Source: Akkermansiaceae bacterium UBA5689 | GTDB taxonomy: Bacteria; Verrucomicrobiota; Verrucomicrobiia; Verrucomicrobiales; Akkermansiaceae | Direction: 5' to 3' | DNA: 64,000 nt | NCBI GenBank assembly: GCA_002420305.1 | Contig: DIHT01000133.1 | Coordinates: forward strand, 2,261 to 66,260 | In this document: positions 1 through 63,179 of the stretch, one piece after another | How the letters are laid out: the number at the start of each line of letters is the position of its first letter | How positions within the stretch are numbered: the stretch's first letter is position 1 | Notes under the pieces: generated by a model | Database searches by the model: none | Seen by the model: only the letters and a program-made list of their open reading frames with translations | Told to the model about the DNA's origin: nothing | Translations under genes and position numbers: made by a program

Positions 1-242
1 GAACACCTGGTGACCCGCAGCTATTTGGCGTTCGGGTCGACCTCGATATCTGGTAAAAACGTCCAAATACCCTTTAAGAGCCCTCGGAATGAGGGGAATG
101 GAGGCTGAAGATCTGCATGTTTTGGTGTTTTGTGTGTTCTTCAATATCTGGTAGAAGCCAGCCATTCAGGCGTTCCCTGAACTGCCACCATCAGTTAAAG
201 GCGGGGAAGAGATCGCAAGTTACCCCGCATAGAACACGATTC

Positions 243-4469: not shown

Positions 4470-4706
4470 ATGAAAAAAACTTCCGTTGCTTTCCTTCTTA
4501 TTTTTGTCGCCCTTGCTGTTCTTCATCAGGACGCATGGAACTGGAGCAGTTCCCATCTGGTTTTTGGCTTCATGCCCGTCGGGCTGGCGTATCACGCACT
4601 GTATTCCCTGACGGCCGCCCTCTTCTGGGGAATCGTGATCAAGTTCGCTTGGCCTGAGGACTTGGAGCAGTGGGCCGAAGAGGGAGAGAAGAACTCAACA
4701 CCTTAA
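4470..4706 (+). CDS. DUF3311-family small membrane protein (accessory subunit usually found next to SSS symporters)
   Basis: 78 aa with two TM segments (VAFLLIFVALAVL, HALYSLTAALFWGIVI). Stops 11 nt before the symporter start, the typical pairing. Confidence 0.7.
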   Translation: MKKTSVAFLLIFVALAVLHQDAWNWSSSHLVFGFMPVGLAYHALYSLTAALFWGIVIKFAWPEDLEQWAEEGEKNSTP

Positions 4707-4717
4707 ATTTAAGAATC

Positions 4718-7613: not shown

Positions 7614-7700
7614 ACGAGAGGACCCAAAGACTCGGCATTCGAAACGGAACACACCAACGAGAAACTTGAACCCCCGGAGCTTTAAAGCGCTCCACTGAAT

Positions 7701-9146: not shown

Positions 9147-10307
9147 ATGGAGCCCTTTACAACCAGACCCAGTCCGCAACTGGTGGGTGGCCCCGGCTCT
9201 CTCGCGGAGCTACCGTCGTGTGTCCGCAAAAGCGGGGGGCAGAACGTGTTGCTTGTTACCGATCAAGGGGTGGCAGCGGCCGGCCACACCGAGCGAGCCG
9301 CGGCTCTGCTTGAAGATGCAGGAATTGCCTGCGCGGTTTATGATGGCACGAGCGAGAATCCTGAGGAGAGCGACATTCTTGCTGCGATGGAATTTGCCCG
9401 CAGGGTTGGGCCGGATTGCTTTGTGGGCCTTGGTGGAGGGAGCAGTATGGACACCGCAAAGGGCTGTAATTTTCTTCTGACTAACGGGGGCGCTATGAGC
9501 GATTACAAGGGATACGGCGCGGCTCGGACTCCCCTTCTCCCCTTTATTGGTATTCCAACTACGGCTGGAACTGGAAGCGAATGCCAGAGTTACGCGGTGA
9601 TCAGTCGGGATCGATCTCACGAGAAGATGGCCTGCGGGGACCCCTCTGCGCTTGCCACGTATGCCATTCTTGACCCTGACCTGACGGCCTCGATGCCTCA
9701 CAGGGTGGCGGTCCTGACTGCGCTGGACGCCCTCGCGCACTCGCTGGAGACAGCGGTGAGCACTCGTAGGAATTCGTTCTCCTCCGCCTACTCAAGGGAG
9801 GCATTTCTTCATATCTCCTCTGCGATTGAGCCAGTTCTGAGGGGAGAAGCATCGGCTATCGAGCGCAACGGGATGTTAATGGGATCCGCCTTTGCGGGAC
9901 TGGCAATTGAGAATAGCATGCTGGGCGCGGCTCACGCCTCGGCGAACCCACTCACGGCCTCATGCGGCCTAGCCCACGGCCACGCGGTTGCTCTAATGCT
10001 TCCTCATGTGATCGGGCTGAATCAGGAAGTCCCGGAAGCCCGGGAGACCTATGCGCATTATGGAACCTTGCTCTCAAGCTGCCAAGGGGCGGACTGCGGG
10101 GTCCGAGCTTGGGTTGAGCATTTGCTGACCGTGGCGGATCTCTCTCCGCTAGCGCAGTGTGGCGTCGATCCGGGCTTGCTTGCCGAGCTCGCAGAGGACG
10201 CTACGAGGCAGTGGACGGGACAGTTCAATCCTCGGAGTATGAAAAGAGAGGATTTTGCAGTATTATACGAGAACGCCTTTGATGGTGCTGCAACCCAAGA
10301 TACGTGA
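9147..10307 (+). CDS. Iron-containing (group III) alcohol dehydrogenase
   Basis: 386 aa. Motif GLGGGSSMDTAKG. Metal-binding His-rich segments LDALAHSLE and GLAHGHAVALMLPH. Confidence 0.85.
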   Translation: MEPFTTRPSPQLVGGPGSLAELPSCVRKSGGQNVLLVTDQGVAAAGHTERAAALLEDAGIACAVYDGTSENPEESDILAAMEFARRVGPDCFVGLGGGSSMDTAKGCNFLLTNGGAMSDYKGYGAARTPLLPFIGIPTTAGTGSECQSYAVISRDRSHEKMACGDPSALATYAILDPDLTASMPHRVAVLTALDALAHSLETAVSTRRNSFSSAYSREAFLHISSAIEPVLRGEASAIERNGMLMGSAFAGLAIENSMLGAAHASANPLTASCGLAHGHAVALMLPHVIGLNQEVPEARETYAHYGTLLSSCQGADCGVRAWVEHLLTVADLSPLAQCGVDPGLLAELAEDATRQWTGQFNPRSMKREDFAVLYENAFDGAATQDT

Positions 10308-11467
10308 TGAACTACCTCTACCCTAACTTTTTGGCCGTCTGCGTGGCCCATGTTCTCGTTACCGCAGGGACCAGCTTCGCGGCCCCCAAGGATAAAAACG
10401 TAGAATCAGAGACAAAGTCTTGGGCGATTCCCCGCGGAGGCAACGCCCTGCAGGGGCGGGTTCCCGACCGTATTCCTCGCAAGCCTGTAGTAAGCTGGGA
10501 TGCCGTGCTTGATGGGCCGATTGTGGGGGACGCAGCTATCGCGGATGGCGCCGTTTTCGTAGGCACGGTAATGGGCACCTTTTACTCCGTGGATGAGCGG
10601 AGCGGCAAGCTGCGCTGGAAGGTTGAAACGGAGGATACCATTGAGGCCCCACCAACCGTGGGCGGAGGCCGGGTCTTCATCGGATCGAGCGATCGATATC
10701 TTTACTGCTTCGACCAGAAGACCGGTAAGGAACTATGGAAATATGAAGCTGCGGATAAGTTCGTGGGCGGGGGCTTACTGGTTCAAAGTCCCGATGGGAA
10801 GGAGTCTTGGGTCGTCGTCAACGGCTACGATGGGATCTGCCGGGCGCTGCGTGCCAAAGACGGCACGGAGGCGTGGACCTACGAAACGGCAGAGCAGATC
10901 AACGGAACCCCAGCGCTGGTTAATGGCAAGAATATCGTTCTTGGAGGCTGCGATGCGAGGGTGCACGTGATTGACGTCACCAATGGAAAGGCAGTGAATG
11001 AAGTTGAGGTGGAGGCGGAGATCATTGGCACTGTAGCGACCATGGGCAGCATGGTGTATTCTGCGAATTATGGAAACCAGCTGGTCGCAGTAGACATTTC
11101 GAAGAAGGATCCGAAGTGGGTTTACGAAGACAAGGATTTCGGATTCTACGCGGCTCCTGCAGTTACCGAAAAGCACGTGTTCATCGGTTCCCGAGACAAG
11201 CACCTCCATGCGGTAGACCGGGATAGTGGCAAAAGAGCATGGCGATTCAAGACCGGCTCCCGTATCGATGGCGGAGCAATCGTCTTCAAGGATGCAGTGG
11301 CCTTTGGATCTGGAGACGGAAGGGTGTATGCGGTCGACCCCGTGAACGGGAAAGAAATCTGGAGGGTAGATCTGGGAGAGGGGATCAGTTCAGATCTCGC
11401 ATTCGCCAACGGTAGAATTGTGGTAGGGGGCTCTGACGGAACGCTTTTTTGCATTGGGGGACAGTAA
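10307..11467 (+). CDS. Secreted PQQ-like beta-propeller repeat protein (BamB-like fold)
   Basis: GTG 10304 or ATG 10307 overlaps the ADH stop (TGATG). Signal peptide MNYLYPNFLAVCVAHVLVTAGTSFAAP. Blades YCFDQKTGKELWKY, RALRAKDGTEAWTY, HAVDRDSGKRAWRF, YAVDPVNGKEIWRV. Confidence 0.75.
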   Translation: MNYLYPNFLAVCVAHVLVTAGTSFAAPKDKNVESETKSWAIPRGGNALQGRVPDRIPRKPVVSWDAVLDGPIVGDAAIADGAVFVGTVMGTFYSVDERSGKLRWKVETEDTIEAPPTVGGGRVFIGSSDRYLYCFDQKTGKELWKYEAADKFVGGGLLVQSPDGKESWVVVNGYDGICRALRAKDGTEAWTYETAEQINGTPALVNGKNIVLGGCDARVHVIDVTNGKAVNEVEVEAEIIGTVATMGSMVYSANYGNQLVAVDISKKDPKWVYEDKDFGFYAAPAVTEKHVFIGSRDKHLHAVDRDSGKRAWRFKTGSRIDGGAIVFKDAVAFGSGDGRVYAVDPVNGKEIWRVDLGEGISSDLAFANGRIVVGGSDGTLFCIGGQ

Positions 11468-11684: not shown

Positions 11685-13010
11685 ATGAGCGAAACCGCTA
11701 CCCCTCCGACGAAGAAGGCCACCCGGGCGGGCAATTACTTTATTTCCAATTACCCGCCCTTTTCCTTCTGGTCCAGTGACCAGGAAGAGGAAGTGCGGTC
11801 GGCGTATGACAGTGCCCCGATCCCGGGGACGCCTCTCGGATTGTATCACCATATTCCCTTCTGTCGCAGGCGCTGTCACTTCTGCTATTTCCGTGTCTAT
11901 ACGGATAAAAATGGACAGGAGATCCGAGACTATCTGGATCACACCATTACCGAATTGGAGCGTCTGGCAGCGAAGCCTCTTGTTGCGGGGCGCAAGCCGC
12001 ACTTTATCTACTTTGGGGGAGGAACCCCTTCCTACCTTTCCGGGCGGCAGCTGACAGACCTTACCGACCGCATGAAGGCCATCCTTCCATGGGACGAGGC
12101 AGAGGAGGTCGCCTTCGAATGTGAACCGGGGACCCTGACGGCGGGAAAGCTGGCTGCGATCAAGGAGATCGGAGTGACCCGCTTGAGCCTTGGGATCGAG
12201 AACTTTGATGACCGGATCCTCGAGATCAACGGTCGTGCTCATCGGAGCAAGGAGGTCTGGAAGGCCTTCGAGCGCGCAAGGGCCGAAGAGTTTGACCAGA
12301 TCAATATCGACCTTATTGCGGGAATGTTGGAGGAGACGGAGGAGAACTGGCAGAAGAACATTGAGCAGGTGCTCAAACTTGCTCCGGACAGCATCACCAT
12401 CTACCAGATGGAGATTCCCTATAACACGACCATCTACAAGGATATGAAGGAGAGTGGTGCCTTGGTGGCACCAGTGGCGGGGTGGGAAACCAAGAGGCGC
12501 TGGGTCAAGGAGGCCTTTGCGGAACTGGAGGCTAATGGCTACACAATCAGCTCCGGATATACGGCGGTAAAGAATCCCGAGAGAACAAAATTCATCTATC
12601 GGGACTCTCTCTGGGGAGGTGCAGATCTTGTTGGGCTTGGGGTAGCCTCGTTTTCACATGTGCAGGGAGTCCATTATCAGAATTTGACGGAGATAGACGA
12701 TTACGTGGCCGCAATTGATTCAGAGAAGATGCCAGTCAAGCGCGCGTTTCGAACGAATGAAGAGGAGCGTATGATACGGGAGTTTATCCTACAGATGAAG
12801 TTGGGCCGCGTGCAGGCAGATTACTTCCGCAACAAATTCGAAATTAACATCCTTGAGCGTTTTTCCCGCCCTCTCGAGGAGCTGACCGAGGAGGGGCTTC
12901 TTGAGGTGGCCGATGATGCCATCGTGCTGAGCCGAGACGGACTTCTGTGCGTGGATAATCTCCTTCACGACTTTTTCCTCGAGCACCATAAAACGGAACG
13001 AATCGTTTAA
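11685..13010 (+). CDS. HemN-like radical SAM protein (coproporphyrinogen-III-oxidase family; class C rSAM or HemW-like)
   Basis: 441 aa. Cluster motif HHIPFCRRRCHFCYF (C60/C64/C67, nt 11862-11885). The fourth Cys of true HemN (CxxxCxxCxC) is replaced by Phe. Also has GGGTPS and a HemN_C-like tail. Confidence 0.8.
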   Translation: MSETATPPTKKATRAGNYFISNYPPFSFWSSDQEEEVRSAYDSAPIPGTPLGLYHHIPFCRRRCHFCYFRVYTDKNGQEIRDYLDHTITELERLAAKPLVAGRKPHFIYFGGGTPSYLSGRQLTDLTDRMKAILPWDEAEEVAFECEPGTLTAGKLAAIKEIGVTRLSLGIENFDDRILEINGRAHRSKEVWKAFERARAEEFDQINIDLIAGMLEETEENWQKNIEQVLKLAPDSITIYQMEIPYNTTIYKDMKESGALVAPVAGWETKRRWVKEAFAELEANGYTISSGYTAVKNPERTKFIYRDSLWGGADLVGLGVASFSHVQGVHYQNLTEIDDYVAAIDSEKMPVKRAFRTNEEERMIREFILQMKLGRVQADYFRNKFEINILERFSRPLEELTEEGLLEVADDAIVLSRDGLLCVDNLLHDFFLEHHKTERIV

Positions 13011-13092
13011 GATCGCAGCAAGATATTGTCCGCTGGCCCGCTATGCGGCGGTCGCGAGCGATCTCTCAGAGTCCTTCATCGAAAAACCTCTC

Positions 13093-13647
13093 TTGAATCC
13101 AATCGAGCATTCATCTCCTCACGGTTTTTTGGGTGAATCCCTCGCGCGTGCTGGGCTGAGCCCGGAGGTATTTATCTGGTGCCCTTCCGAGCAAGTGCCA
13201 GATCCTTTCCACGCTCTCCTTGTGCATCAGGGTGATATGACGTCGACGTTGGAGAGGTTCTACCAAGAGCGCATGCTTCTTGAGGTTCTTGCGGAGGAAA
13301 ATTCCGATGGATGCTACTACAGGGAAGTCATTCTCAAGGGGAAGGGAACTGGTCGGGTGGCTGAATTTGGGGTGATTGAAATTGAGTTGGATCATTTTCC
13401 TCTAGCCCTTCAGAAATTGATTTTACGCGGCGAGCAACCTCTAGGGGGGATCCTCAATGAGAGTGGGATGACCTATAAAAGCGAGCCCCTCGGCTACTTT
13501 TCGGTTGCGCGGGAGGCCCTACCGCCGAAATTATCCCTATTGGGCTCTGCATGCATGTTTTTTGGCCGCTACAATCAGCTAAAAAGCCGTGACGAGACCT
13601 GTCTGGCCCGAATTCTCGAAATAGTTCCTGATTTTCACCACCAATGA
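13093..13647 (+). CDS. Chorismate lyase-like (UbiC/DUF98 family) protein
   Basis: 184 aa, TTG start. Family-like motifs GDMTSTLERF, YREVILKG, and C-terminal LARILEIVP. Its stop overlaps the next start (ATGA at 13644). Confidence 0.55.
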   Translation: MNPIEHSSPHGFLGESLARAGLSPEVFIWCPSEQVPDPFHALLVHQGDMTSTLERFYQERMLLEVLAEENSDGCYYREVILKGKGTGRVAEFGVIEIELDHFPLALQKLILRGEQPLGGILNESGMTYKSEPLGYFSVAREALPPKLSLLGSACMFFGRYNQLKSRDETCLARILEIVPDFHHQ

Positions 13648-14915
13648 ATATTTCCGGCGATAAACAATCCTGTGACGTCATTGTCATCGGCGGGGGCCCC
13701 TGTGGAGCTACCACGTCTGCCCTCCTTGCAGAGAAAGGCCATCGAGTCATCTTGCTCGAGAAAGAAAAGTTTCCCCGCTACCATGTCGGCGAGTCGCTCA
13801 TGCCCTTCTGCTATTTCACCCTGAAAAGGCTCGGAGTCCTGGAGGAAATGGAAAAGCAGGCATTTGTGAAGAAGCACAGCGTGCAGTTTGTCTCTAAAGA
13901 CGGGAAAATATCGGATCCCTTTTACTTTTTTCAGCATTTTGACCACCCGGCGGCCACGACGTGGCAGGTGGAACGGTCCGTCTTCGACAATATGCTGCTG
14001 CGCAATGCAGAGGCCAAAGGAGTCGACGTTCGAGAGGAAACAGAAGTGCGCCGTTTCAATTATGAAGGGGAACAGGTTGTTGGCGTCTCCGCCAAGGGAA
14101 AAGACGGGCAGGAATACACCCTCCAAGCACCGCTGACGGTTGACTGCACTGGGCGTGATGCCCTGTTCTTGAGAAAAAAGAGCTGGAGGAAACGGGATCC
14201 AAAGCTCAACAAAATAGCGATTTGGACGCTCTACAAGAATGCGAAGCGTGACGAGGGTCTGGATGAAGGGGCAACTACCGTAGCTTATGTCGATGGCAGG
14301 GGCTGGTTCTGGAACATTCCCCTGCGCAACAATATTGTGAGCTCAGGAATCGTCGCGGAGCGGGATTACCTCTACCGTGACAGCAGGGATCCGAAGGAGA
14401 TTTACGAGCGTGAAATCGAGAAAAATAGCTGGATTAAGGATCACCTTGGAGAGGGAGAGCAATTTGGCGAATACTGGGTGACCGGGGAGTATTCTTACCG
14501 GGGAGAGCATTGCGCCTCTGATGGTCTCGTCATGGCAGGTGATGCCTTTGCCTTTTTGGACCCGGTCTTTTCCTCGGGAGTCTTTCTCGCTTTGAAAAGC
14601 GGAGAAATGGCAGCAGACGCCGTAGGAGAAGCTTTGGAGAAAGGGGACTTCTCAGCAGGGCAATTCTCAACTTACGGGGAGGAGCTTTGCGGAATGATTG
14701 AAGTCATGCGCAAGCTCGTTTACGCCTTTTACGACGAGAATTTCAGTTTTGGAGAGCTCATTAAGCGGCACGAAGAGATGCGCCCCATGCTCACTGACTG
14801 TTTGATTGGCGATCTCGATGGAAAAGATTATACGCCCCTCGCGGAAGCAATAGGCGACTTGGCCTCGCTTCCGGAGCCTCTCGCCCACGGACGAGCCCCC
14901 CAGACTGTAACATAA
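13644..14915 (+). CDS. FAD-dependent halogenase-like oxidoreductase (tryptophan/phenol halogenase family signature)
   Basis: 423 aa. GxGxxG in DVIVIGGGPCGATTS. FPRYHVGESLMP. Candidate Lys in FVKKHSVQF. WxWxIP motif GWFWNIPL (nt 14304-14321). FLDPVFSSGV (FxxPxxSxG). Confidence 0.65.
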   Translation: MNISGDKQSCDVIVIGGGPCGATTSALLAEKGHRVILLEKEKFPRYHVGESLMPFCYFTLKRLGVLEEMEKQAFVKKHSVQFVSKDGKISDPFYFFQHFDHPAATTWQVERSVFDNMLLRNAEAKGVDVREETEVRRFNYEGEQVVGVSAKGKDGQEYTLQAPLTVDCTGRDALFLRKKSWRKRDPKLNKIAIWTLYKNAKRDEGLDEGATTVAYVDGRGWFWNIPLRNNIVSSGIVAERDYLYRDSRDPKEIYEREIEKNSWIKDHLGEGEQFGEYWVTGEYSYRGEHCASDGLVMAGDAFAFLDPVFSSGVFLALKSGEMAADAVGEALEKGDFSAGQFSTYGEELCGMIEVMRKLVYAFYDENFSFGELIKRHEEMRPMLTDCLIGDLDGKDYTPLAEAIGDLASLPEPLAHGRAPQTVT

Positions 14916-14936
14916 CACGATGTCCCCGCTACCCGC

Positions 14937-16253
14937 ATGAAAGTCACCTTTCTGACAGCGGGCACGGGTAGCTACCACTGCGGAGCGTGTATGCGTGACA
15001 ACACCCTTGTCACGGCCCTACACCGGGACGGGCACGAGGTGGCTCTGTTGCCTATGTATCTCCCCATGCAGCTGGACGAGGAAAGTCCGCCGCAGGAAAG
15101 TCGGGTGCCGATATTTTTTGGAGGGATCAACGTCTACCTGCAAAACAAGTTTGCGTTCTTCAGGCACACTCCCCGGTGGTTTGATGCTCTCTTGAATGGC
15201 GCAGGGCTACTGCGGAAGGCGGCGAGCCGGAGCCATATGACCAGCCCGCGAGACCAGGGAGAGATCTGTCTCGCTATGCTCCGGGTGGAACAGAGCCGTT
15301 TCACGAAGGAGCTGGAAAAGCTGATTGATTGGCTTGCTGTGCACGAGCAACCCGAATGTATCGCCCTGTCGACAACACTTTTCGCCGGGATGACCAAGGA
15401 GTTGAAGAAGCGTCTGGGAGACATTCCGGTCATCGCGTTTTTCCAGGGAGAAGACACCTTCCTCGATAGCCTTCCTGAACCTTACCGGACTGGGTGCTGG
15501 GACGAAATGAAGGAACGGCTTGTGGAGTGCGAAATGCTGATTGCCCCAAGTCGCTTTTATGCCGGGGTCATGTCCAAGCGCCTTGGGATCTCTCAGGACA
15601 AAATAGAGGTGCTCCCAAATGGGATTAACTTGGAAGGATACGGGAACCAACAGCCCCCGGATGGGCCCAAGGCGATTGGCTACTTATCCCGGATGTGCAG
15701 GGATAAGGGCCTAGGAGACATGGTGGATGCCTATCTCCTCTTCCAGTCGAAGGGAAACTTTCCGGAGTGCCGGCTCAAGATCGCGGGCTCATGTCCCCCG
15801 GGGGATGAGCCCTTTGTGAAGCAACAGAAACAAAAAATCGAGACTGCCGGACTGAGCCATCTTGTTGACTGGAAGCCCAATGTGAGCCGGGAGGAGAAGG
15901 TCCGCTTTCTTGGGAGCCTTACAATATTTTCAGCGCCCATGCGTTATGCCGAGGCCTTCGGCCTCTGTCTTGTTGAAGCCATGGCGAGTGGAGTTCCAGT
16001 GGTGAACCCCGGGGGCTCAACCTTCGAGGAAATTGCCTTGGCCACGGGGGGAGGAAAAACAGTCTCACCCGGCGACCCCGGGCTGCTGGCGTGTGCTTGG
16101 GAAGAGCTCCTGAGCAATCCTGAGGAGGCGACAGCGATGGGAGAAAGAGGTCGCCGAGGGGTAGAGGAGCATTATAGTGTCAATGCCATGAAGGATGGGT
16201 TCCTGGAACTCGCTCAGAGAGCCTGTGCAAAGACTACATCCCGCCAGCCATGA
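14937..16253 (+). CDS. Glycosyltransferase family 4 (GT-B, Glycos_transf_1 type)
   Basis: 438 aa. EX7E-type motif AEAFGLCLVEAMASGVPVV. Typical GT4 C-terminal domain. Confidence 0.8.
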   Translation: MKVTFLTAGTGSYHCGACMRDNTLVTALHRDGHEVALLPMYLPMQLDEESPPQESRVPIFFGGINVYLQNKFAFFRHTPRWFDALLNGAGLLRKAASRSHMTSPRDQGEICLAMLRVEQSRFTKELEKLIDWLAVHEQPECIALSTTLFAGMTKELKKRLGDIPVIAFFQGEDTFLDSLPEPYRTGCWDEMKERLVECEMLIAPSRFYAGVMSKRLGISQDKIEVLPNGINLEGYGNQQPPDGPKAIGYLSRMCRDKGLGDMVDAYLLFQSKGNFPECRLKIAGSCPPGDEPFVKQQKQKIETAGLSHLVDWKPNVSREEKVRFLGSLTIFSAPMRYAEAFGLCLVEAMASGVPVVNPGGSTFEEIALATGGGKTVSPGDPGLLACAWEELLSNPEEATAMGERGRRGVEEHYSVNAMKDGFLELAQRACAKTTSRQP

Positions 16254-16702
16254 GGGAGGATTCCAAAAATTACTGCTATGAGCACAGCCGCCGGGTTGAG
16301 TTTCATGAGACAGATCTCGCCGGGATCGTGCACTTCTCCAATTTTTATCGTTATATGGAGTCCGCTGAACATGCCTTCATGCGAAGCCTTGGACATCCAG
16401 TTCACGGGCGAGCTGCCGAGGATGGGGTTGGATGGCCGCGGGTGAGTGCCAGTTGTGAATTCCGGAAGCCTGCGCGTAACGACGACGTGTTGCGGATACG
16501 GGTTAGTATCGAAGAGATCCGGACGAGGTCAGTTCGCTACAGTTTTCGCTTCTACCTTGACCCCGGGGATGATCCCATTGCGACGGGAACAGTAGCGGTT
16601 GCCTGCGTGCAATTCAAAGACGGAGAAATTTCTGCAGTTCCCATCCCTGAACAGATTCGAGCTGATCTCAAGTCCGCCGAGGCTGCCGCCAATCCCGAAT
16701 GA
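16250..16702 (+). CDS. Hotdog-fold acyl-CoA thioesterase (4HBT/YbgC family)
   Basis: 150 aa. N-terminal motif RVEFHETDLAGIVHFSNFYRYMESAEHAFMRSLG with the catalytic Asp context. ATGA overlap with the GT4 stop. Confidence 0.8.
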   Translation: MREDSKNYCYEHSRRVEFHETDLAGIVHFSNFYRYMESAEHAFMRSLGHPVHGRAAEDGVGWPRVSASCEFRKPARNDDVLRIRVSIEEIRTRSVRYSFRFYLDPGDDPIATGTVAVACVQFKDGEISAVPIPEQIRADLKSAEAAANPE

Positions 16703-17292
16703 TTCCAGTGAGCGCCCCTCTTCCCAAATCTCAGAAAAAGAAATCCATGAACTGGCTTATTTTTGCTCTCATGACCGTGGCCTGTTGGGGCCTCTACGGC
16801 ATTTTCCTTCATGCCGGCCAAGTTGAAATGCAGGACAAGGTCCTTGGCCGCTACAAGGCGTTCCTTTTCGTAGGACTCGCTTATTTTATCACCGCAGTAG
16901 TCGCGCCACTGGTGGTCCTGCTGGTCAAGGGAGCAGACTGGTCCATGCCGGGGAAGGGGATGTGGCTTTCTCTATTTGCCGGGATTCTTGGTGCGATCGG
17001 AGCCTTTTGCGTTCTGCTTGCGATGGCTTCCGGAGCAAAGGGAGGGATGAGTCCTGCGGTGGTGGCAATCTCGGTGATGTCGATTATCTTCTGCGGGGCT
17101 CCACTGGTGAATGCGATCGTTTCGATCTGTATGGATCGACCGGCAGGAGGGCTCGCAGCCGTTCCATGGCAATTTTTCTGCGGGATCCTGATGGCGGCCT
17201 TTGGCGGCTTCATGGTGGTGAAGTTCAAGCCTGCTGGATCTCACGGAGCTCCTCCGGCCAAACCGCCGATAGAAGCTCAAGCAAAACAATAG
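16699..17292 (+). CDS. Integral membrane protein (5 predicted TM; half-size DMT/EamA-like)
   Basis: ATG 16699 overlaps the thioesterase stop (ATGA). Alternative ATG at 16747 (MNWLIFALMTVACWGLYG). Hydrophobic throughout, with a Pro/Ala/Lys-rich tail. Confidence 0.6.
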   Translation: MIPVSAPLPKSQKKKSMNWLIFALMTVACWGLYGIFLHAGQVEMQDKVLGRYKAFLFVGLAYFITAVVAPLVVLLVKGADWSMPGKGMWLSLFAGILGAIGAFCVLLAMASGAKGGMSPAVVAISVMSIIFCGAPLVNAIVSICMDRPAGGLAAVPWQFFCGILMAAFGGFMVVKFKPAGSHGAPPAKPPIEAQAKQ

Positions 17293-17332
17293 TAAGTAGA
17301 ACTCCTCGGGGAAGACTGGAGAGACTTCGGAA

Positions 17333-18556
17333 ATGATGCCCCTCAGCGCCATCAACGACCTCTTCGGAGCCATCTTGCCTGCCAATGCTTTTTACGCGGC
17401 AAAGTTGGGAAAGTGTCTAACGGTGGAGAGTCTGAAGGAATTCGAGAGCCGAGTGCCGTTTACGACCAAGGACGAACTGGCTGCGGATCACGAAGCGCAT
17501 CCGCCTTACGGCTCCAACCTCACTTATCCGCTTAAGCGCTACACCCGTTTCCACCAGACAAGCGGCACGCGGGGAAATCCCATGGCTTGGCTAGATGATT
17601 CTGCCGGCTGGGACTGGGTTTTAAAATCGTGGCAATGGGTCTGGGACAAGGCTGGGGCTACTCCGGGGGATAGTGCGTTTTTCCCATTCTCCTTCGGCCC
17701 CTTCATTGGATTCTGGTCTGCCTTTGAGGCTGCGACGGAAATGGGCATCCGGGCGATTCCGGGAGGTGGGCTTTCGAGTGAAAACCGCCTCCGGATGATG
17801 GAGCGGCATCGACCTGGCTTTATTGCGTGCACCCCTACCTATGCCCTTCATCTTGCGAACATAGGGAAGGAAATGGCTCTTCCGGTAGATGTGCTGGGCG
17901 TGGAGGCGCTGGTGGTCTGTGGTGAGCCCGGGGGAAGTATTCCGGAGGTTCGGGAACGGATCCAGCGTGAATGGAATGCGCGGGTTGTGGACCACCATGG
18001 GATGACCGAGACGGGCCCGGTAACAGTCAGCGATCCTCAAAATCCCGAGGTCCTCCGAATTTCTCATCAGGCCTATCACGCAGAGGTTATCAAGACAGGT
18101 AGTGGAACCCACGTAGCTCCAGGAGAAGTTGGAGAGCTCGTATTGACAACTCTCGGGCGCTATGGGTCACCATTGATCCGCTATCGTACGGGCGATCTTG
18201 TCCGTCCGGTAGCTGTTGAGGGGGAGGGGCCCGGAGCCTTTGGTTTGCATGGGGGTATCATTGGAAGGGCGGATGATATGGTAGTGGTTCGAGGGGTAAA
18301 CCTCTACCCCAGTGCGATCGAGGCGGTTGTTCGAGGCTTGGATGGGATCGGGGAATACTTGGTCGAGGTCGATGAGCGCGGAGCCCTGCCAGAGGTCAGC
18401 CTGATCGCAGAGATGCTGGAGGGGCAATCGGTTGAGAGCGAACTTGAGGCCCGCCTCCGTGCTGTTTTTTCTATGAGAATCCCTGTAAGAGCGGTTCGTC
18501 CTGGCGATCTGCCGGGTCACGAAGTAAAGGCCAAGCGGTGGAAAGTGATCAGGTAA
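17333..18556 (+). CDS. Phenylacetate-CoA ligase-like (PaaK / coenzyme F390 synthetase family) adenylate-forming enzyme
   Basis: 407 aa. Motifs FHQTSGTRGNPM, HHGMTETG, RYRTGD, VVVRGVNLYP. Confidence 0.8.
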   Translation: MMPLSAINDLFGAILPANAFYAAKLGKCLTVESLKEFESRVPFTTKDELAADHEAHPPYGSNLTYPLKRYTRFHQTSGTRGNPMAWLDDSAGWDWVLKSWQWVWDKAGATPGDSAFFPFSFGPFIGFWSAFEAATEMGIRAIPGGGLSSENRLRMMERHRPGFIACTPTYALHLANIGKEMALPVDVLGVEALVVCGEPGGSIPEVRERIQREWNARVVDHHGMTETGPVTVSDPQNPEVLRISHQAYHAEVIKTGSGTHVAPGEVGELVLTTLGRYGSPLIRYRTGDLVRPVAVEGEGPGAFGLHGGIIGRADDMVVVRGVNLYPSAIEAVVRGLDGIGEYLVEVDERGALPEVSLIAEMLEGQSVESELEARLRAVFSMRIPVRAVRPGDLPGHEVKAKRWKVIR

Positions 18557-19230
18557 TGATAGATGTTCAAAATGTAAGCAAGGTGTATGAGATGCCGGGG
18601 GAGGCCGTTCGCGCCCTCGCCGGCATCGAGTTCCAGGTAAAATCGGGAAAGACCGCAGCAGTCGTTGGTCCCTCGGGGAGCGGAAAAACAACCCTGCTGA
18701 ATCTTCTAGGGGCGTTGGACCAGCCCAGTGAGGGCAAGATAGTCATCGATGGCAATGATCTCTCCTCCTTTGGTGAAGAGGAGGCCGCGACTTTCCGAAA
18801 TCGCTCTCTGGGTTTCGTCTTCCAGCACCATCATCTGCTGCCGCAGTGCACCCTTCTGGAAAATGTGGTTCTTCCCCGTCTTGCCGGGGGTTGGGAGGAA
18901 GCCGAATCAGAGACTGCGGCGAGGGCGGAGACATTGCTCGAAAATGTCGGCCTTCAGGACCGGCTTACCCACTTTCCGCACCAGCTTTCTGGTGGGGAGC
19001 GATTGCGCGCGGCTCTAGCCCGGGCACTTGTCAATCAGCCAAAATTGATTCTTGCGGATGAGCCTACGGGCTCGCTCGATCTTGAGACAACAGAAGTGGT
19101 CGCAGAGCTTCTGGGGCGGCTGAATTCTGAGATGGGCGTCACCCTCGTAGTCGTTACCCACAATCTCGCTCTGGCCCAGAGGATGGAAAGTCACTTTGAG
19201 CTCCGCGGCGGGCAATTGGAGAAGCAATGA
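18556..19230 (+). CDS. ABC transporter ATP-binding protein (LolD/MacB-type)
   Basis: ATG 18556 overlaps the ligase stop (TAATG). Walker A GPSGSGKTT, signature LSGGERLR, Walker B ILADEPTGSLD. Confidence 0.9.
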   Translation: MIDVQNVSKVYEMPGEAVRALAGIEFQVKSGKTAAVVGPSGSGKTTLLNLLGALDQPSEGKIVIDGNDLSSFGEEEAATFRNRSLGFVFQHHHLLPQCTLLENVVLPRLAGGWEEAESETAARAETLLENVGLQDRLTHFPHQLSGGERLRAALARALVNQPKLILADEPTGSLDLETTEVVAELLGRLNSEMGVTLVVVTHNLALAQRMESHFELRGGQLEKQ

Positions 19231-22200
19231 ATGTGCTCAAGTTCATCCGGCGCGGGATCTGGCACTACAAGCTCTCCTATTTAGGGGTCGGCGCTGGAGC
19301 GGTTCTTGGCGCTACCGTCTTGCTCGGAGCTCTTATTGCCGGGGATTCGGTAAAGGAAACTCTTCGTCAGGTTGCGGGTCAACGTGTTGGCCAGGTTGGC
19401 CATGTGTTTGTGGCGGGAGAGGGGTTTTTTCGAGATGCCCTCGCTGATGATGTTGAGAACAAGGACCTCAGGGTTGCGCCGGTTCTCCTCCTACGGGGGC
19501 AGCTCAACGCATCGGCGACTGGCAGGGCTCAAGGGAGTGTACAGATTCTTGGCGTAGACGACCGGTTCTGGGGGTTTTCACCAGAAGAGAGGAGTGCGGT
19601 GGCGCTCGAGTCCCGGGAGGTAGGAGTGAACAGTTATCTGGCAGAGTCCCTAGATCTCCAAGAGAGCGACTCTGTCATCATTCGTCTCCAAGAGCCCGGC
19701 ATGCTTTCCCGCGACGCCCCCCTCTCCGGAGAGGCTGAAGATGTTATCAGTTTCCGGGCAAAGGTCAGGAAGGTTGTGGGCCCAAATCAGTTCGGCCGAT
19801 TCAACCTCCAAGCCACTCAGCTACCCGTGCCCACCATTTTTGTGCCCTTAAGCCGGTTACAGCAAGTAGTCGAACAGCCCGGTCGGGCCAATCTGCTCCT
19901 TTTGTCTGCGGAGGAAGAGGGATCAGTTGGTAGTAATGAGTTGGCCAGCCAGATCAGGAGCGAGATGGCTTTGGAGGACTATGGCCTTTCCCTTGTGGAT
20001 GTGCCTTTGGCTAACGCCTCGGAGATCAGATCAAGCCGCATTTTCTTCGAGGACCCGATCGTCCGAGTAGTTCAAGAGCGGTTTCCCGCCATGGTGCCGG
20101 TAACCAGTTATCTCATTAACACCTACGCTGCGAATGGGAAGGAAACGCCGTATTCCATGGTAGCGGCGGTGCGGGCAGAGGGAGCCTCTTTCCTGCCTCA
20201 GGACATGAAAGGGGAGGACATCGTGGTCAATGAGTGGCTGGCGGAAGACCTCGATTTGGAATCCGGTCAGGAATTAAGCTTATCCTTTTTCAAATTGGTT
20301 CGGGGAAATGAGTTAGAAGAATCCACGGCGAATTTCCGGGTGCGAAAGAGCATCAACCTTGAGGGGCTTGCCGCGGATCAGCTTTGGATGCCGGACTTCC
20401 CGGGGGTGGCGGAGGCGGAGGATGCCCAGGACTGGGCTCCGGGATTGCCTCTCGATCTCGGCAGGATCAGGCAAAAAGATGAGGATTATTGGGATGATTA
20501 TCGGGGAACCCCAAAGGCCTTTATTTCTGAGGAAAAGGGGACGGAGCTATTTGGCAACCGGTGGGGAAATTTCACATCTCTCCGGGTGCCAACTGCGGAG
20601 GTTTCCACGGTGAACCTCGAGGATGAATTGCTGCCACTCCTCCGGCCAGAGATGGCCGGCTTACTTCTGCGTAACCTAGGAGATGAAGCAAGAGCAGCAG
20701 CGAAATCCCCAGTCGATATCGCGGGCCTTTTTCTCAGTATGAGCGTATTCCTGATTGTGGCGTCCATTGCTCTGACAGCGATGCTCTTTCGGTTCAACGT
20801 CGAGCAGCGCAACAGGGAGAGTGGGCTGCTTGCTGCGGTGGGGGTCTCACCGAGAAAGGTTCTCCGGTGGCGCCTCGTGGAAGGGTTCATCATTGTGTTA
20901 GTAAGCGGGGGAGTCGGGCTGGCCCTAGCAATCACCTACTCGACCTGGATTCTTCGCTTTCTGGAAACAATATGGAGTGATGGGATGAGCGGGCCATTCT
21001 TCATGCTTCACCTGAATCCCAACAGTGTATTCGTCGGATTAGGGGTCTTCATTTTTCTGTCCATGGCTGCTATCTACTACTCAATGCGGAAGCAGGCTCG
21101 GAGAAGTGCAACCATGCGGTTGGAGGCAGGAACCGAGGAGGCCCGGGGGCGCCCCCGGATCTGGCGATTTGCATCTACGGGGGCGCTCTGTTTGCTTGTA
21201 GCGGCAGGAAGCCTCCTTGGGAGAGAGTCGATTGGGGCTCAGGCTGCCTTTTTCCTTTCCGGGATGTTTCTTCTGGTTGCGGGGCTGCTGACTTACCGGG
21301 CGTGGCTCGAACGTATAGCGAAGAAGAGATATCCCTCCATGTCTACTAGAGCGATGGCGACCCTGAACAGTGTTCGCCGACCGGCGCGAAGCCTGGTGGT
21401 AGTTGGGATCATGGCGTGCGGAATTTTTCTCGTTATTTCTGTTACAGCCTCACGAAAGTACGTTGGGGAAGAGTGGGCGGAAAAGGAAAGTGGGGCCGGA
21501 GGGTTCGGCTTTTGGATCGAAACGACAAGCCCGATCAATCGAGCAGCTGACGCCAAGAAGGATCCTGATTATTTTGAGCTGGGAGACCTCAGGGATATTC
21601 TCGGTGCCATCGTCCCCTTCCGAATGGGCGTGGGAGACGATGCTAGCTGCTTTAACTTAAATACGGCAGCCCGCCCCCGATTGATTGCGACCGATACCGG
21701 GGCCTTAGCAGAGCGAGGGGCCTTTACCCTCAAGGCAGTTTCCGAAGGAGCGAATAAGGAGGACGGCTGGAAGCTCCTGGGGCAACGAGCCGAGCCGAGG
21801 GTGCTTCCTGCATTTGTCGATGAGACAACGATGATGTGGGTTCTTAAGAAGAAAGTTGGAGATCGAATTACCTATCAGGATGAGCGGGGGAAGGATTTTC
21901 AGGTAGAAATTGTAGGAGCGTTAGCCGATAGCGTTTTCCAAGGAAACATGATCGTTGACGAGGCCGCCTTTCTTAGGTTGTTCCCCTCGCAGGAGGGCTA
22001 CCGCCTGTTTCTGGCGGACGCTTCCGACGACACCGAGCAGGCGCTGGAAGCGCTGCAGAAAGCCACTGCAGATCGTGGAGGCGCAGTTTCTCTTACGCAG
22101 GAAAGGCTCGAAAGCTTTAACAACGTGCAGAATACCTATATTTCGATTTTCCACGTCCTTGGAGGTCTCGGTCTCATTCTGGGGAGTGCAGGACTCGGAG

Positions 22201-22505
22201 TTGTGACAGCTCGTAATCTTGCCGAAAGGCGGAATGAATTTGCCGTTCTCAACGTCATCGGGGTGGCCCACCGGGAAATCCGAAGGATTATTTTCAAGGA
22301 GGTGAGATCCTTTATTGGCTGGGCTCTTGTGGTCGGCCTCGGGGCCTCATGCGTAGCAATACTGCCTGTGTTCTCAGAAGCCCCGCCGGAACAAACCCTG
22401 TTTGGTCTAGGGGTAATGGTTGTGCTTATCGGCGTAAATAGTCTGTTCTGGGCCTTTGTTGGCTATCTTACCGCCTATCGCAGAAGATCTGGAATCAGGA
22501 TCTGA
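19227..22505 (+). CDS. Large ABC transporter permease with two FtsX-type domains
   Basis: 1092 aa. ATGA overlap with the ATPase stop. Two modules, each with an N-terminal TM, a large extracytoplasmic domain and a 3-TM FtsX-like bundle (…FNVEQRNRESGLLAAVGVSPRKV… and …ARNLAERRNEFAVLNVIGVAHREI…). Confidence 0.8.
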   Translation: MNVLKFIRRGIWHYKLSYLGVGAGAVLGATVLLGALIAGDSVKETLRQVAGQRVGQVGHVFVAGEGFFRDALADDVENKDLRVAPVLLLRGQLNASATGRAQGSVQILGVDDRFWGFSPEERSAVALESREVGVNSYLAESLDLQESDSVIIRLQEPGMLSRDAPLSGEAEDVISFRAKVRKVVGPNQFGRFNLQATQLPVPTIFVPLSRLQQVVEQPGRANLLLLSAEEEGSVGSNELASQIRSEMALEDYGLSLVDVPLANASEIRSSRIFFEDPIVRVVQERFPAMVPVTSYLINTYAANGKETPYSMVAAVRAEGASFLPQDMKGEDIVVNEWLAEDLDLESGQELSLSFFKLVRGNELEESTANFRVRKSINLEGLAADQLWMPDFPGVAEAEDAQDWAPGLPLDLGRIRQKDEDYWDDYRGTPKAFISEEKGTELFGNRWGNFTSLRVPTAEVSTVNLEDELLPLLRPEMAGLLLRNLGDEARAAAKSPVDIAGLFLSMSVFLIVASIALTAMLFRFNVEQRNRESGLLAAVGVSPRKVLRWRLVEGFIIVLVSGGVGLALAITYSTWILRFLETIWSDGMSGPFFMLHLNPNSVFVGLGVFIFLSMAAIYYSMRKQARRSATMRLEAGTEEARGRPRIWRFASTGALCLLVAAGSLLGRESIGAQAAFFLSGMFLLVAGLLTYRAWLERIAKKRYPSMSTRAMATLNSVRRPARSLVVVGIMACGIFLVISVTASRKYVGEEWAEKESGAGGFGFWIETTSPINRAADAKKDPDYFELGDLRDILGAIVPFRMGVGDDASCFNLNTAARPRLIATDTGALAERGAFTLKAVSEGANKEDGWKLLGQRAEPRVLPAFVDETTMMWVLKKKVGDRITYQDERGKDFQVEIVGALADSVFQGNMIVDEAAFLRLFPSQEGYRLFLADASDDTEQALEALQKATADRGGAVSLTQERLESFNNVQNTYISIFHVLGGLGLILGSAGLGVVTARNLAERRNEFAVLNVIGVAHREIRRIIFKEVRSFIGWALVVGLGASCVAILPVFSEAPPEQTLFGLGVMVVLIGVNSLFWAFVGYLTAYRRRSGIRI

Positions 22506-22554: not shown

Positions 22555-23460
22555 GTGAAAGCTCTTATCCTGGTATTATTAACGTTAGCGCCTATGGCCC
22601 GCGGCGGGGACTGGGTTGATCTCTGGACGGGTGAGGCTCCGGGGGCCAAACGCCCGCCGGCCGGGACCGAAACTGGCGGAAGCAACTGGAGATTTTCTCA
22701 TACGGAAATTCCCCAGTACAGTTTGTTTCCAGCAAAAAAACCGAATGGAACGGGGGTGGTGATTTTGCCAGGTGGGGGCTATGCCAACCTCGCAGCAGAT
22801 CACGAAGGGCGGCAAGTTGGAGAGTGGTTCGCCAAACGGGGAGTAACGGCCATGGTGGTCAAATATAGGGTTAGCTCCAACCCTGCCCTTGGATATCATT
22901 ATCCCATCCCTCAAATGGATGTTCGGCGGGCGATCCGGACAATGAGGTCCATGTCGACGAAGTGGGCCGTGGATGCGGGTCGGATCGGCGTTCTGGGGTT
23001 TTCGGCCGGAGGCCACCTCTGCTCTACCGCAGTCACAATGTTCGATGACACATTCAAGCAGGAAACACAGGACCCTATCGACATGCTAAGCTGTCGGCCG
23101 AACTTTGGGATTCTCTGCTATCCTGTGATTGCAATGGGCCAGCCCTATTGCCACGGGGGGTCGGTGAGGAATTTACTGGGAGAGGCGCCCTCTCAGGAAC
23201 TCCTCGACCGGAACAATACCGCATTACGAGTCACTAGTCGCACCCCTCCGATTTTTCTCGTCCACTCTGCCGATGACCGGGCAGTGCCTTTACGGAATGG
23301 CACGGAATTTGTGGCAGCTTGTGCGGAGAAGGGAGTTCCGGTGACCTGCCATATTTATGCCAAGGGAGGCCATGGTTATGGTCTGGGCCGGGCTGGAGAA
23401 TCCAAAAACTGGCCTGCCCGCCTCGAAGATTGGATGCGAAGCCACGGATGGATGGAGTGA
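22555..23460 (+). CDS. Secreted alpha/beta hydrolase (esterase, BD-FAE / carbohydrate-esterase-like)
   Basis: GTG start, signal peptide MKALILVLLTLAPMARG. Oxyanion region VILPGGGY. Nucleophile elbow GFSAGGH. C-terminal HSADDRAVP…GGHGYG. Confidence 0.75.
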   Translation: MKALILVLLTLAPMARGGDWVDLWTGEAPGAKRPPAGTETGGSNWRFSHTEIPQYSLFPAKKPNGTGVVILPGGGYANLAADHEGRQVGEWFAKRGVTAMVVKYRVSSNPALGYHYPIPQMDVRRAIRTMRSMSTKWAVDAGRIGVLGFSAGGHLCSTAVTMFDDTFKQETQDPIDMLSCRPNFGILCYPVIAMGQPYCHGGSVRNLLGEAPSQELLDRNNTALRVTSRTPPIFLVHSADDRAVPLRNGTEFVAACAEKGVPVTCHIYAKGGHGYGLGRAGESKNWPARLEDWMRSHGWME

Positions 23461-30685: not shown

Positions 30686-30772
30686 CAAGAATAGGGTCAG
30701 ATCAAGAGCTAGCGGAGGGAAGAGGGGGTATCTTTTCCTCGCCCCTTGGGAGCCGCGGGGGGAGAATGCCAT

Positions 30773-54666: not shown

Positions 54667-54714
54667 GTAAGGGCGCCGCCGCTTCTGTTTTCGGCTTCTC
54701 AATCAGCATGACCT

Positions 54715-55185: not shown

Positions 55186-55208
55186 CATAAGCAAGGAGAA
55201 CTGATCCC

Positions 55209-55694: not shown

Positions 55695-55708
55695 GGTATT
55701 ACTGCTGC

Positions 55709-55745
55709 CCTCCAGCTACTACTAGTAGCGATTTTGTGCTGGAGG
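55709..55745 (+). other. Intercistronic stem-loop between exbD2 and the TPR gene
   Basis: CCTCCAGC (55709-55716) pairs with GCTGGAGG (55738-55745). The loop contains an inner palindrome CTACTAGTAG. No U-tract follows. Confidence 0.3.
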
Positions 55746-55848
55746 CCCCAATGAGGATCTAAGAAAATCTTCGCCCAAACGTTGGTGTTCTTGCCGGGCG
55801 CCCCGGTTTCTGAGAGAAAATCTATCTAGACTACAACCTCGATTCGAC

Positions 55849-63177: not shown

Positions 63178-63179
63178 GC

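Follow-up and report, generated by a model that had tools for sequence, protein, structure and literature searches.

In a 64,000-nucleotide stretch of DNA from Akkermansiaceae bacterium UBA5689 (contig DIHT01000133.1; the whole stretch is called the window below), we found a conserved block of about 17 genes at positions 117-22505, all of them on the + strand. In our judgement the case is evenly balanced for reading this block as one biosynthetic super-operon for a halogenated, possibly C-methylated, glycosylated 4-hydroxybenzoate-derived compound that is sent to the envelope. An earlier note on this DNA had placed a nine-gene operon for aromatic-acid tailoring and export at 11685-22505. Its nine open reading frames (ORFs) were all found where it had put them, but the boundaries were too narrow: the conserved block begins at or before 117, ends at 22505 and takes in eight further upstream genes, namely three secreted PQQ_2 beta-propellers, a DUF3311/Na+-solute symporter pair, an EhpF/EhpG-type pair and an iron-containing alcohol dehydrogenase (Fe-ADH). 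With the wider boundaries, which bring in the reductase genes and the propellers, the likely end product changes, and it may be a benzyl aldehyde or alcohol instead of a benzoate. Nor were the nine genes the evolutionary core of the system. That core is a pair formed by a HemN-like radical S-adenosylmethionine enzyme (rSAM) and a chorismate-lyase-like protein, and the halogenase, glycosyltransferase and export genes are facultative. The genes of the block are as follows.

117..2522, + strand, secreted PQQ_2 beta-propeller of 801 amino acids (Pfam PQQ_2; signal-like N-terminus)
2547..4376, + strand, second PQQ_2 beta-propeller, with a lipoprotein-like signal ('...GFSSC'; Pfam PQQ_2)
4470..4706, + strand, small DUF3311-type membrane subunit of the symporter (Pfam annotation of the gene call; conserved position)
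4670..6409, + strand, sodium:solute symporter (SSF; Pfam SSF, NCBIfam sss; conserved with the block)
6543..7613, + strand, EhpF-type truncated ANL adenylating enzyme of 356 amino acids (PDB EhpF 3l2k/3hgu)
7701..9140, + strand, EhpG-type partner of the aldehyde dehydrogenase (ALDH) superfamily, 479 amino acids (Pfam Aldedh)
9147..10307, + strand, iron-containing alcohol dehydrogenase (Pfam Fe-ADH, ADH_Fe_C)
10304..11467, + strand, secreted 8-bladed PQQ_2 (BamB-like) beta-propeller of 387 amino acids (Pfam PQQ_2, 238 bits; signal peptide)
11685..13010, + strand, HemN-like (class C-type) radical SAM enzyme, core gene (Pfam Radical_SAM and HemN_C; CxxxCxxC and GGGTP motifs)
13093..13647, + strand, UbiC/DUF98-fold chorismate-lyase-like protein of 184 amino acids, TTG start (AlphaFold model, Foldseek, UbiC alignment)
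13644..14915, + strand, flavin-dependent halogenase of the short CndH/Bmp2/PltA/CmlS type (Pfam Trp_halogenase/FAD_binding_3; PDB matches)
14937..16253, + strand, family 4 glycosyltransferase (GT4; Pfam Glycos_transf_1, Glyco_transf_4)
16250..16702, + strand, hotdog (4HBT/YbgC-type) acyl/aryl-coenzyme A (CoA) thioesterase (Pfam 4HBT, 4HBT_2)
16699..17292, + strand, five-transmembrane (5-TM) protein of 197 amino acids (five hydrophobic segments; conserved position)
17333..18556, + strand, PaaK-type aryl/acyl-CoA (or AMP) ligase (Pfam AMP-binding and AMP-binding_C_2)
18556..19230, + strand, LolD/MacB-type ABC ATPase (Pfam ABC_tran; NCBIfam LolD 262 bits, below cutoff)
19227..22505, + strand, duplicated FtsX permease of 1092 amino acids, type VII/MacB-like and ADOP-like (two FtsX domains, weak ADOP match)

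Gene order and junction bases showed that the last nine of these genes form a single co-oriented, translationally coupled unit, as the earlier note had said. Base-by-base reading of the junctions found ATGA overlaps at 13644, 16250, 16699 and 19227 and TAATG at 18556, and the remaining intergenic gaps within the nine-gene set measure 82, 21 and 40 nt. Upstream, the start of the 387-residue propeller overlaps the Fe-ADH stop by 4 nt. Pfam and NCBIfam confirmed eight of the nine family calls, and the DUF98/chorismate-lyase-like call failed its family models. The absence of a polyketide synthase or non-ribosomal peptide synthetase (NRPS) core also held: ketosynthase (KS), acyl carrier protein (ACP), NRPS and prenyltransferase were absent from the scanned window ORFs (all but a few short ones) and from 80 related loci.

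These related loci came from a pattern scan with one genome per GTDB species, which gave 153 relatives of the lyase-like protein, and the best 80 were analysed. Each locus comprised 10 kb on either side of the lyase gene, its ORFs were labelled with the window proteins, and all counts were corrected for the available flank. The best 80 of the 153 were almost all from Verrucomicrobiota, together with a few metagenome-assembled genomes (MAGs) assigned to Acidobacteriota, Phycisphaerae and others; MAGs are the source of many loci, and binning errors may underlie some of the phylum assignments. The earlier note had made its proposal depend mainly on synteny in related genomes, and the block was found to be syntenic across genomes of the Planctomycetes-Verrucomicrobia-Chlamydiae group (here Verrucomicrobiota). 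The rSAM gene lay beside the lyase gene in 66 of the 72 loci with enough flank, at spacings of 0-80 nt or in overlap. Near the lyase gene we also found the 387-residue propeller (48/62, ahead of the rSAM), the halogenase (48/74), the GT4 (32/70), the thioesterase (29/67), the PaaK-like ligase (27/62), the 5-TM protein (21/64), the ABC ATPase (18/58), the FtsX permease (16/48) and the EhpF-type, ALDH-type and Fe-ADH genes (14 of about 50). Synteny is thus nested around the rSAM-lyase core, with the propeller, halogenase, GT4/thioesterase, ligase, ABC and reductase modules added stepwise.

Eleven loci with enough flank keep the full 13-gene order from EhpF to FtsX, and in two Opitutaceae loci (L026, L030) it persists at 39-74% protein identity. 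Roseibacillus, cultured Haloferula and Opitutaceae carry the full block; cultured Haloferula helveola has all of it, including both large propellers and the symporter, and cultured Horticoccus sp. (L078) has the block without the halogenase. Near-identical loci occur in MAGs named Roseibacillus sp. and Akkermansiaceae bacterium, and the window proteins match, protein for protein, Tara Oceans metagenome contigs and MAG GCA_002709205.1, which marks the source as a marine member of Verrucomicrobiota. All-against-all clustering of the neighbours in the 80 loci revealed no further recurrent neighbour family, and minimal loci are otherwise flanked by housekeeping genes such as ispH, accD, trpS and mltA. 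The arrangement is far beyond chance. Dozens of species-level genomes share this gene order, at protein identities of 34-74%.

No protein of the block is more conserved than the rSAM. Its motifs CRRRCHFC (CxxxCxxC) and YFGGGTPS (GGGTP) are kept in 73 orthologues, and its HemN_C match is borderline (23.9 bits vs a cutoff of 24). Against the hemN equivalog TIGR00538 it scored 208 bits, short of the cutoff of 325, and it stayed below every NCBIfam equivalog cutoff, including those for HemW, HemZ, ChuW/HutW (189 bits) and STM4012 (192 bits); among PDB sequences it matched HemN at 128 bits and NocN at 92 bits. Pfam scans of the window named no heme-biosynthetic gene, and the constant neighbours of the rSAM gene are the lyase-like and halogenase genes, which gives the HemN-like architecture in a non-heme biosynthetic context that is typical of C1-transferring class C radical SAM enzymes. 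The rSAM clade at 71% identity or above comprises over 120 clusters, and both sampled homologues at 73% identity lie in this gene cluster. Documented HemN-like enzymes include methylases, cyclopropanases and more, and where the gene context has nothing to do with heme, C1 transfer such as methylation is the typical activity (PMC10114718). By this analogy ring C-methylation is our best guess, and the rSAM would most likely be a ring C-methylating enzyme.

One different account of the same gene is that the rSAM is the organism's own anaerobic coproporphyrinogen oxidase (HemN) and the 387-residue propeller a BamB-like housekeeping protein, their adjacency being inherited, with the real pathway running only from the lyase through FtsX. 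Its top NCBIfam and PDB matches are indeed true HemN over the full length, public annotations name it coproporphyrinogen oxidase, and high conservation of the rSAM and minimal loci amid housekeeping genes would suit such a role. The score of 208 bits is nonetheless about equal to those for ChuW/HutW and STM4012, and the PGAP name is merely 'family protein'. The tight coupling to the lyase gene in most loci, which extends to MAGs assigned to other phyla (L061, L082, L083), and the location of both 73%-identity homologues inside the cluster also argue against it, and we regard this account as improbable.

The lyase-like protein is the hub gene of the cluster, as follows from two independent pairings. 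One is with the rSAM; the other is with the ligase, seen in Acidobacteriota loci where a PaaK-like ligase (49-52% identity) directly follows the lyase gene and no rSAM is present. The product of the lyase-like protein, this suggests, is the aromatic acid activated by the ligase. The family check proposed in the earlier note gave no Pfam or NCBIfam match even at E <= 10, and a profile of the family yielded only chance matches to light-harvesting proteins among PDB sequences. Predicted fold and residue alignment spoke for the call instead. An AlphaFold (AF2) model built on 20 homologues reached a predicted local distance difference test score (pLDDT) of 90 and a predicted template modelling score (pTM) of 0.86. 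Its top Foldseek match was the DUF98 protein AF1396 (2nwi; E 4e-8, TM-score 0.65/0.74), followed by effector-binding (UTRA-type) domains of GntR-family regulators and then by E. coli chorismate lyase UbiC (1jd3/1g1b, E about 1e-3). When the family was aligned to UbiC of the E. coli K-12 record, 12 columns proved invariant across both, including M49-T50, R77, P116-L117-G118 and G158-R159, which correspond to UbiC M34-T35, R76, P-L114-G and GR. The ligand-binding and catalytic residues of UbiC are M34 (through its backbone), R76, L114 and E155, and in UbiC structures M34, R76 and L114 hold the product carboxylate. By modelled fold and pocket the protein is UbiC/DUF98-like, while its membership of that family is not proven. 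Its own relatives are numerous: an exhaustive profile search reached 1,739 clusters at 50% identity with E <= 1e-3.

A single Verrucomicrobia MAG (L029, 9899-11734) carries an in-frame fusion of the lyase-like protein with a complete LytB/IspH domain (611 amino acids; Pfam LYTB 224 bits), the only such case among the loci analysed; the exhaustive profile search also turned up a 613-residue representative (P0263). As an isoprenoid link the fusion was rejected, being confined to one locus.

The breadth of the core also bears on the idea that the genes make a quinone-like or other redox cofactor of primary metabolism, with ring supply by the UbiC-like protein, methylation by the HemN-like enzyme, ring modification by the flavoprotein, and a product that serves quinoprotein-like propellers. 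UbiC starts the ubiquinone and plastoquinone pathways. HemN-like MenK/MqnK methylate quinones (menaquinone; PMC10114718), the propellers resemble quinoproteins (a weak match to 'empty quinoprotein'), the core is widespread with its 1,739 clusters, and the IspH fusion could be counted in. That fusion is a single case, though, and a prenyltransferase, a UbiD/UbiX decarboxylase or an O-methyltransferase was found in none of the 80+ loci. Moreover, the flavoprotein carries a complete halogenase signature, not that of a hydroxylase, and the GT4, thioesterase and ligase are without a role in known quinone routes. We therefore hold a cofactor of this kind to be decidedly improbable. We rate as rather improbable the broader idea that the rSAM and the UbiC-fold protein form a new two-enzyme system whose chorismate-derived aromatic is a standard Verrucomicrobiota trait and not an antibiotic of scattered occurrence, either as a periplasmic cofactor or ligand of the propellers or as a halogenated aromatic glycoconjugate of the envelope.

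The flavin-halogenase-like call passed the Trp_halogenase and FAD_binding_3 models. The nearest solved relatives are CndH (192 bits), 8zop (an unnamed halogenase), Bmp2 (167), PltA (167), Mpy16, CmlS and ChlB4. The GxGxxG FAD-binding motif reads GGGPCG (residues 16-21), the WxWxIP motif reads GWFWNIP (GWFWxIP in at least 95% of orthologues), and the third signature is FLDPVFSSG. The catalytic lysine of flavin halogenases is K79 in PrnA and K76 in CndH; K77 of the window protein aligns with CndH K76 and with the equivalent lysines of PltA and Bmp2. Each of the four signatures, K77 included, is retained by at least 95% of 51 orthologues. Most of the nearest solved relatives act on thioester-held aromatic acyl groups, a preference that is relevant here since the cluster encodes no carrier protein.

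Two enzymes of the block could make and break such thioesters. The ligase found its best PDB match in 2-hydroxyisobutyryl-CoA synthetase (164 bits), with PaaK at 123 bits; it scored 146-153 bits against PaaK equivalogs whose cutoffs are 646-700, which places it in a PaaK-like subfamily and not among PaaK orthologues, and the FlxY match of this adenylating enzyme is weak (84 bits). The nearest PDB relatives of the thioesterase include the 4-hydroxybenzoyl-CoA thioesterases 5wh9 and 1bvq, and it keeps the 'EFxxTDxAGIxH' Asp motif of that class.

The reductase module lies upstream of the core. The 6543..7613 protein, for which Pfam gave only a weak AMP-binding match, aligned over its full length with EhpF 3l2k (182 bits; residues 17-356 on 23-366); it is without the usual ANL C-terminal domain, carries a TGGTTGMPK motif and would be the half of a two-protein reductase that activates the aryl carboxylate. 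A LuxE/LuxC fatty-acid reductase reading of 6543-9140 was dropped after this PDB match. Homologues on Streptomyces plasmids (about 35-39% identity) are annotated "arylcarboxylate reductase" or "phenazine biosynthesis protein", and the Streptomyces clusters with an EhpF homologue are shikimate-type; a literature search on 'arylcarboxylate reductase' returned nothing relevant. The ALDH-like protein shares 30% identity, along its entire length (E 2e-41), with the product of the ALDH gene that comes after the Streptomyces EhpF homologue, and the window order of EhpF-type then ALDH-type is the ehpF-ehpG order of phenazine clusters. The ALDH-like protein has a candidate catalytic Cys in GGRSCIN and is proposed to be an acyl-adenylate/thioester reductase that would yield an aldehyde. 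The Fe-ADH also adjoins the rSAM in the distant loci L007, L048, L065 and L071. In the Ehp pathway a phenazine carboxylate ends up as the hydroxymethyl group that griseoluteic acid bears in place of its precursor's carboxylate (PMC3175449). On the strength of that change, the EhpF/EhpG-type pair and the Fe-ADH are read as a predicted module from aryl acid through aldehyde to alcohol.

The same enzymes can be run in the opposite direction, as a catabolic or salvage route in which the symporter would bring in an aromatic alcohol, aldehyde or acid, Fe-ADH and ALDH would oxidise it, and CoA ligases would activate it for processing as a thioester. The block does contain an SSF importer, an Fe-ADH, an ALDH-family protein, a PaaK-type ligase and a 4HBT thioesterase, and such a pathway would resemble the phenylacetate (PaaK/PaaI) or 4-chlorobenzoate (ligase/dehalogenase/4HBT) routes. 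Ring-cleavage, epoxidase, dehalogenase and beta-oxidation genes are absent, however, and the halogenase, the GT4, the aromatic-making lyase and the exporter-type ABC pump are features of anabolism or export. The ALDH-like protein, moreover, is of the EhpG type, whose partner in biosynthetic clusters is an adenylating enzyme. We consider catabolism very improbable indeed.

The GT4 has only distant PDB relatives, among them the lipid glycosyltransferases PimA, GlcN-PG synthase and MGlcDAG synthase. Its family shows an invariant N-terminal 'TxGxGxxxCGxCxRDN...GH...PxYLP' (about residues 7-45) with two cysteines, which is unusual for GT4 and might be a metal or redox site. In one MAG (L096, 13171-14523) a GFO_IDH_MocA oxidoreductase, which may be a sugar-modifying accessory gene, stands between the halogenase and the GT4. 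The 5-TM protein belongs to no family, with EamA/DUF2070 matches below threshold only; it is possibly a half-size DMT/EamA-like transporter or flippase. The last two genes combine an ABC ATPase with an FtsX-domain permease, the make-up of a type VII ABC exporter. In a distant relative (L007, 1-6916) two very large resistance-nodulation-division (ACR_tran/MMPL) transporters precede Fe-ADH-rSAM-lyase-halogenase and replace the ABC/FtsX pump, which suggests that the export module is interchangeable.

These genes also allow the product to be an envelope component: the GT4 and the ligase would join an aromatic acid or alcohol to a sugar-lipid or another envelope acceptor, the 5-TM protein and the LolCDE/MacB-like pump would flip and extract the conjugate, and the propellers would handle it in the periplasm. 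Such a product would be like mycobacterial p-hydroxybenzoate glycoconjugates or outer-membrane aryl polyenes, and it is in keeping with an ATPase whose top match is LolD (262 bits) next to a type VII FtsX permease, with three secreted or lipoprotein-like propellers in the block, with the lipid glycosyltransferases among the distant GT4 relatives and with conservation that is phylum-wide, not sporadic. On the other side, lipid-synthesis, acyltransferase and polyprenyl-phosphate genes are absent from all loci, the export genes occur in only about one third of them, and the acceptor of the GT4 is not readable from sequence. We regard an envelope component as unlikely, yet as an alternative to be taken seriously.

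In the small-molecule pathway that we infer for the super-operon, from its substrates and step order to its product, the UbiC/DUF98-fold protein would turn chorismate into a 4-hydroxybenzoate-type acid, and the HemN-like rSAM would carry out a C1 or radical modification of the scaffold, most likely ring C-methylation. The PaaK-type ligase would load the acid as a thioester and the 4HBT thioesterase release it, CoA replacing a carrier protein, and the short flavin-dependent halogenase would chlorinate or brominate the phenol ring. The EhpF/EhpG-type pair and the Fe-ADH would then reduce the carboxylate to an aldehyde or benzyl alcohol, and the GT4 would glycosylate the compound. The 5-TM protein and the MacB-type ABC/FtsX pump would carry the product out of the cytoplasmic membrane, and the three secreted beta-propellers may then bind or handle it. 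Much of this logic (acid supply, halogenation/C1 chemistry, CoA activation, glycosylation and ABC export) had already been put forward in the earlier note and fits all that was measured; the reductase module and the propellers had been omitted there.

Several points weigh against this pathway. Pfam Chor_lyase/DUF98 does not recognise the lyase-like protein, and its hhalign comparison with E. coli UbiC reached a probability of just 11.8%. Its invariant E176 sits 1-2 positions off UbiC E155 in the alignment, which makes the E155 equivalent ambiguous, and the UTRA ligand-binding domain has the same fold, so the protein could be a binding partner and not an enzyme. The reaction of the rSAM cannot be read from its sequence, and its top score is against true HemN. 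A periplasmic adaptor (HlyD or membrane fusion protein) or LolA protein is absent from the block and none recurs in related loci; a flavin reductase and an outer-membrane channel are also absent from the block, and the pathway does not account for the symporter and the propellers. Finally, many genomes keep only propeller-rSAM-lyase(-halogenase) amid housekeeping genes, a pattern more in line with a conserved function in the cell than with a classical antibiotic.

The other upstream genes keep their positions too. The 801-residue propeller has counterparts upstream of the block in Haloferula (62% identity), Opitutaceae (66% over the part available) and Horticoccus (39%). It probably starts at M43, followed by a signal peptide, the annotated ORF beginning 42 codons too early. 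Its C-terminal extension of about 180 residues was unnamed by Pfam at E <= 0.001 and by eye is concanavalin/DUF1080-like, as in a lectin. The second propeller shows 57-58% identity in Opitutaceae and 59% in Haloferula with its position unchanged. A start near 4718 (563 amino acids in public gene calls) is more likely for the symporter than 4670.

Downstream of the block the window encodes one further gene of note.

22555..23460, + strand, secreted alpha/beta-hydrolase esterase (Pfam BD-FAE, Abhydrolase_3; PaeX-like)

It is conserved only within Roseibacillus, and Haloferula has another gene at that position; its membership in the cluster is doubtful. This pectin-acetylesterase-like protein has a BD-FAE/Abhydrolase_3 paralogue at 30746-31621, which lies 7 kb past it near a sulfatase and a GHL10 protein, and both esterases probably belong to polysaccharide degradation and not to the cluster. 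Elsewhere, an ExbB/ExbD pair followed by a 999-residue TPR protein (53878-58848) and a PEP-CTERM protein (34613-35320) are typical Verrucomicrobiota envelope genes unrelated to the cluster. On the - strand at 60369-63246, consecutive genes for Ni_insertion (LarC-like, 469 bits), AIRC (LarB-like) and PP-loop Asn_synthase/NAD_synthase-type (LarE-like) proteins look like a nickel-pincer nucleotide cofactor biosynthesis set. No riboswitch or other RNA was found in the 217-nt gap before the rSAM or elsewhere in the window, a promoter scan of the window gave promoter-like sites at the level of shuffled controls, and terminator-like sites in the window fell mostly inside genes.

Verrucomicrobiota are abundant in oceans, soils and guts, and their small-molecule chemistry is almost unknown. 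This long and tightly organised locus is shared by different orders of the phylum, and its presence in cultured Haloferula helveola and Horticoccus sp. makes the proposal directly testable. If it is true, pathway engineering could profit from halogenation in which a CoA ligase and a hotdog thioesterase replace the carrier protein, and from the reduction of aryl acids by an EhpF/EhpG pair. Should the compound prove to be a natural organohalogen, so widespread a source in sea and soil would be of consequence for halogen cycling.

We compared the cluster with known systems. A close parallel in early chemistry is ambigol of Fischerella ambigua, whose first steps, reportedly described by Duell in 2020 and Kresna in 2021 (both cited in PMC10300848), use Ab5 as lyase, Ab6 for adenylation, Ab8 as carrier protein, Ab10 as halogenase and Ab9 for release. 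In both, chorismate-derived 4-hydroxybenzoate is adenylated, flavin-halogenated as a thioester and then released, here as proposed from the genes. By analogy, the ligase/thioesterase pair around a short halogenase would match this activate-halogenate-release logic, which the pyrrole pathways share. Unlike ambigol, the window cluster is without a carrier protein, a condensation domain and a P450, for which CoA and a hotdog thioesterase would substitute in carrying the acid; it adds the HemN-like rSAM, the carboxylate reductase pair, the GT4 and the ABC exporter, and it belongs to another phylum.

The bmp cluster of marine Pseudoalteromonas has the chorismate lyase Bmp6 and the halogenases Bmp5 and Bmp2. 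It too is marine and bacterial and joins a chorismate lyase with flavin halogenases to give halogenated phenolics, and the window halogenase is a Bmp2 homologue (167 bits). It differs in that one halogenase is decarboxylating, a P450 does the coupling and the pyrrole branch relies on an ACP; an rSAM, a glycosyltransferase, a reductase pair and an FtsX exporter are all missing from it. Mycobacterial p-hydroxybenzoic acid derivatives and phenolic glycolipids depend on the lyase Rv2949c, on FadD22 and on glycosyltransferases. There, as proposed here, a DUF98-type lyase supplies p-hydroxybenzoate that is adenylated, glycosylated and exported to the envelope or medium, but the mycobacterial route has a FadD22-ACP, Pks15/1, several GT-A/GT-B enzymes and methyltransferases, and is without halogenase, rSAM and carboxylate reduction.

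Xanthomonadin, aryl-polyene and flexirubin loci likewise combine a hydroxybenzoate-type start with an adenylating enzyme, a halogenase, a glycosyltransferase or acyltransferase, a hotdog thioesterase and outer-membrane export. Their KS/chain-length factor, ACP, ketoreductase and dehydratase are absent from the window and related loci; specifically, Pfam found no ketosynthase pair and ACP of the aryl-polyene type in the window, and none recurs among the 80 related loci. Their chorismate enzyme, moreover, is an FkbO/XanB2-type chorismatase whose fold differs from that of the window's lyase-like protein. EhpF and EhpG act in the biosynthesis of D-alanylgriseoluteic acid, a phenazine, in Pantoea/Enterobacter agglomerans (PDB 3l2k, 3hgu; PMC3175449; PMC11278526). 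Both systems place a truncated ANL enzyme before an ALDH-family protein, and in Ehp an aromatic carboxylate becomes a hydroxymethyl group; the Ehp substrate, unlike ours, is phenazine-1,6-dicarboxylate, and phz genes are absent here. Reductase activity of the EhpF/EhpG pair has, to our knowledge, been proposed and not biochemically shown. The class C radical SAM enzymes MenK/MqnK, TbtI, NosN, C10P and ChuW share the HemN architecture, CxxxCxxC and GGGTP motifs and non-heme context of the window rSAM (PMC10114718), which is orthologous to no characterised member and falls below all NCBIfam cutoffs.

The earlier note had not recognised the gene combination as a described cluster, and a literature search likewise found no description of it. 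For the constant pairing of a HemN-like rSAM with a UbiC-fold protein we know of no precedent. That a distinct HemN-like clade is almost always paired with a UbiC-like family suggests undescribed radical SAM chemistry on a chorismate-derived ring. Enzyme types and overall logic have precedents in ambigol, bmp, mycobacterial, Ehp and aryl-polyene systems, and the combination matches none of them. What appears to be new is the near-constant pairing of this clade with a UbiC-fold family that no model in Pfam or NCBIfam matches, the handling of the acid without a carrier, and the phylum-wide conservation together with secreted propellers.

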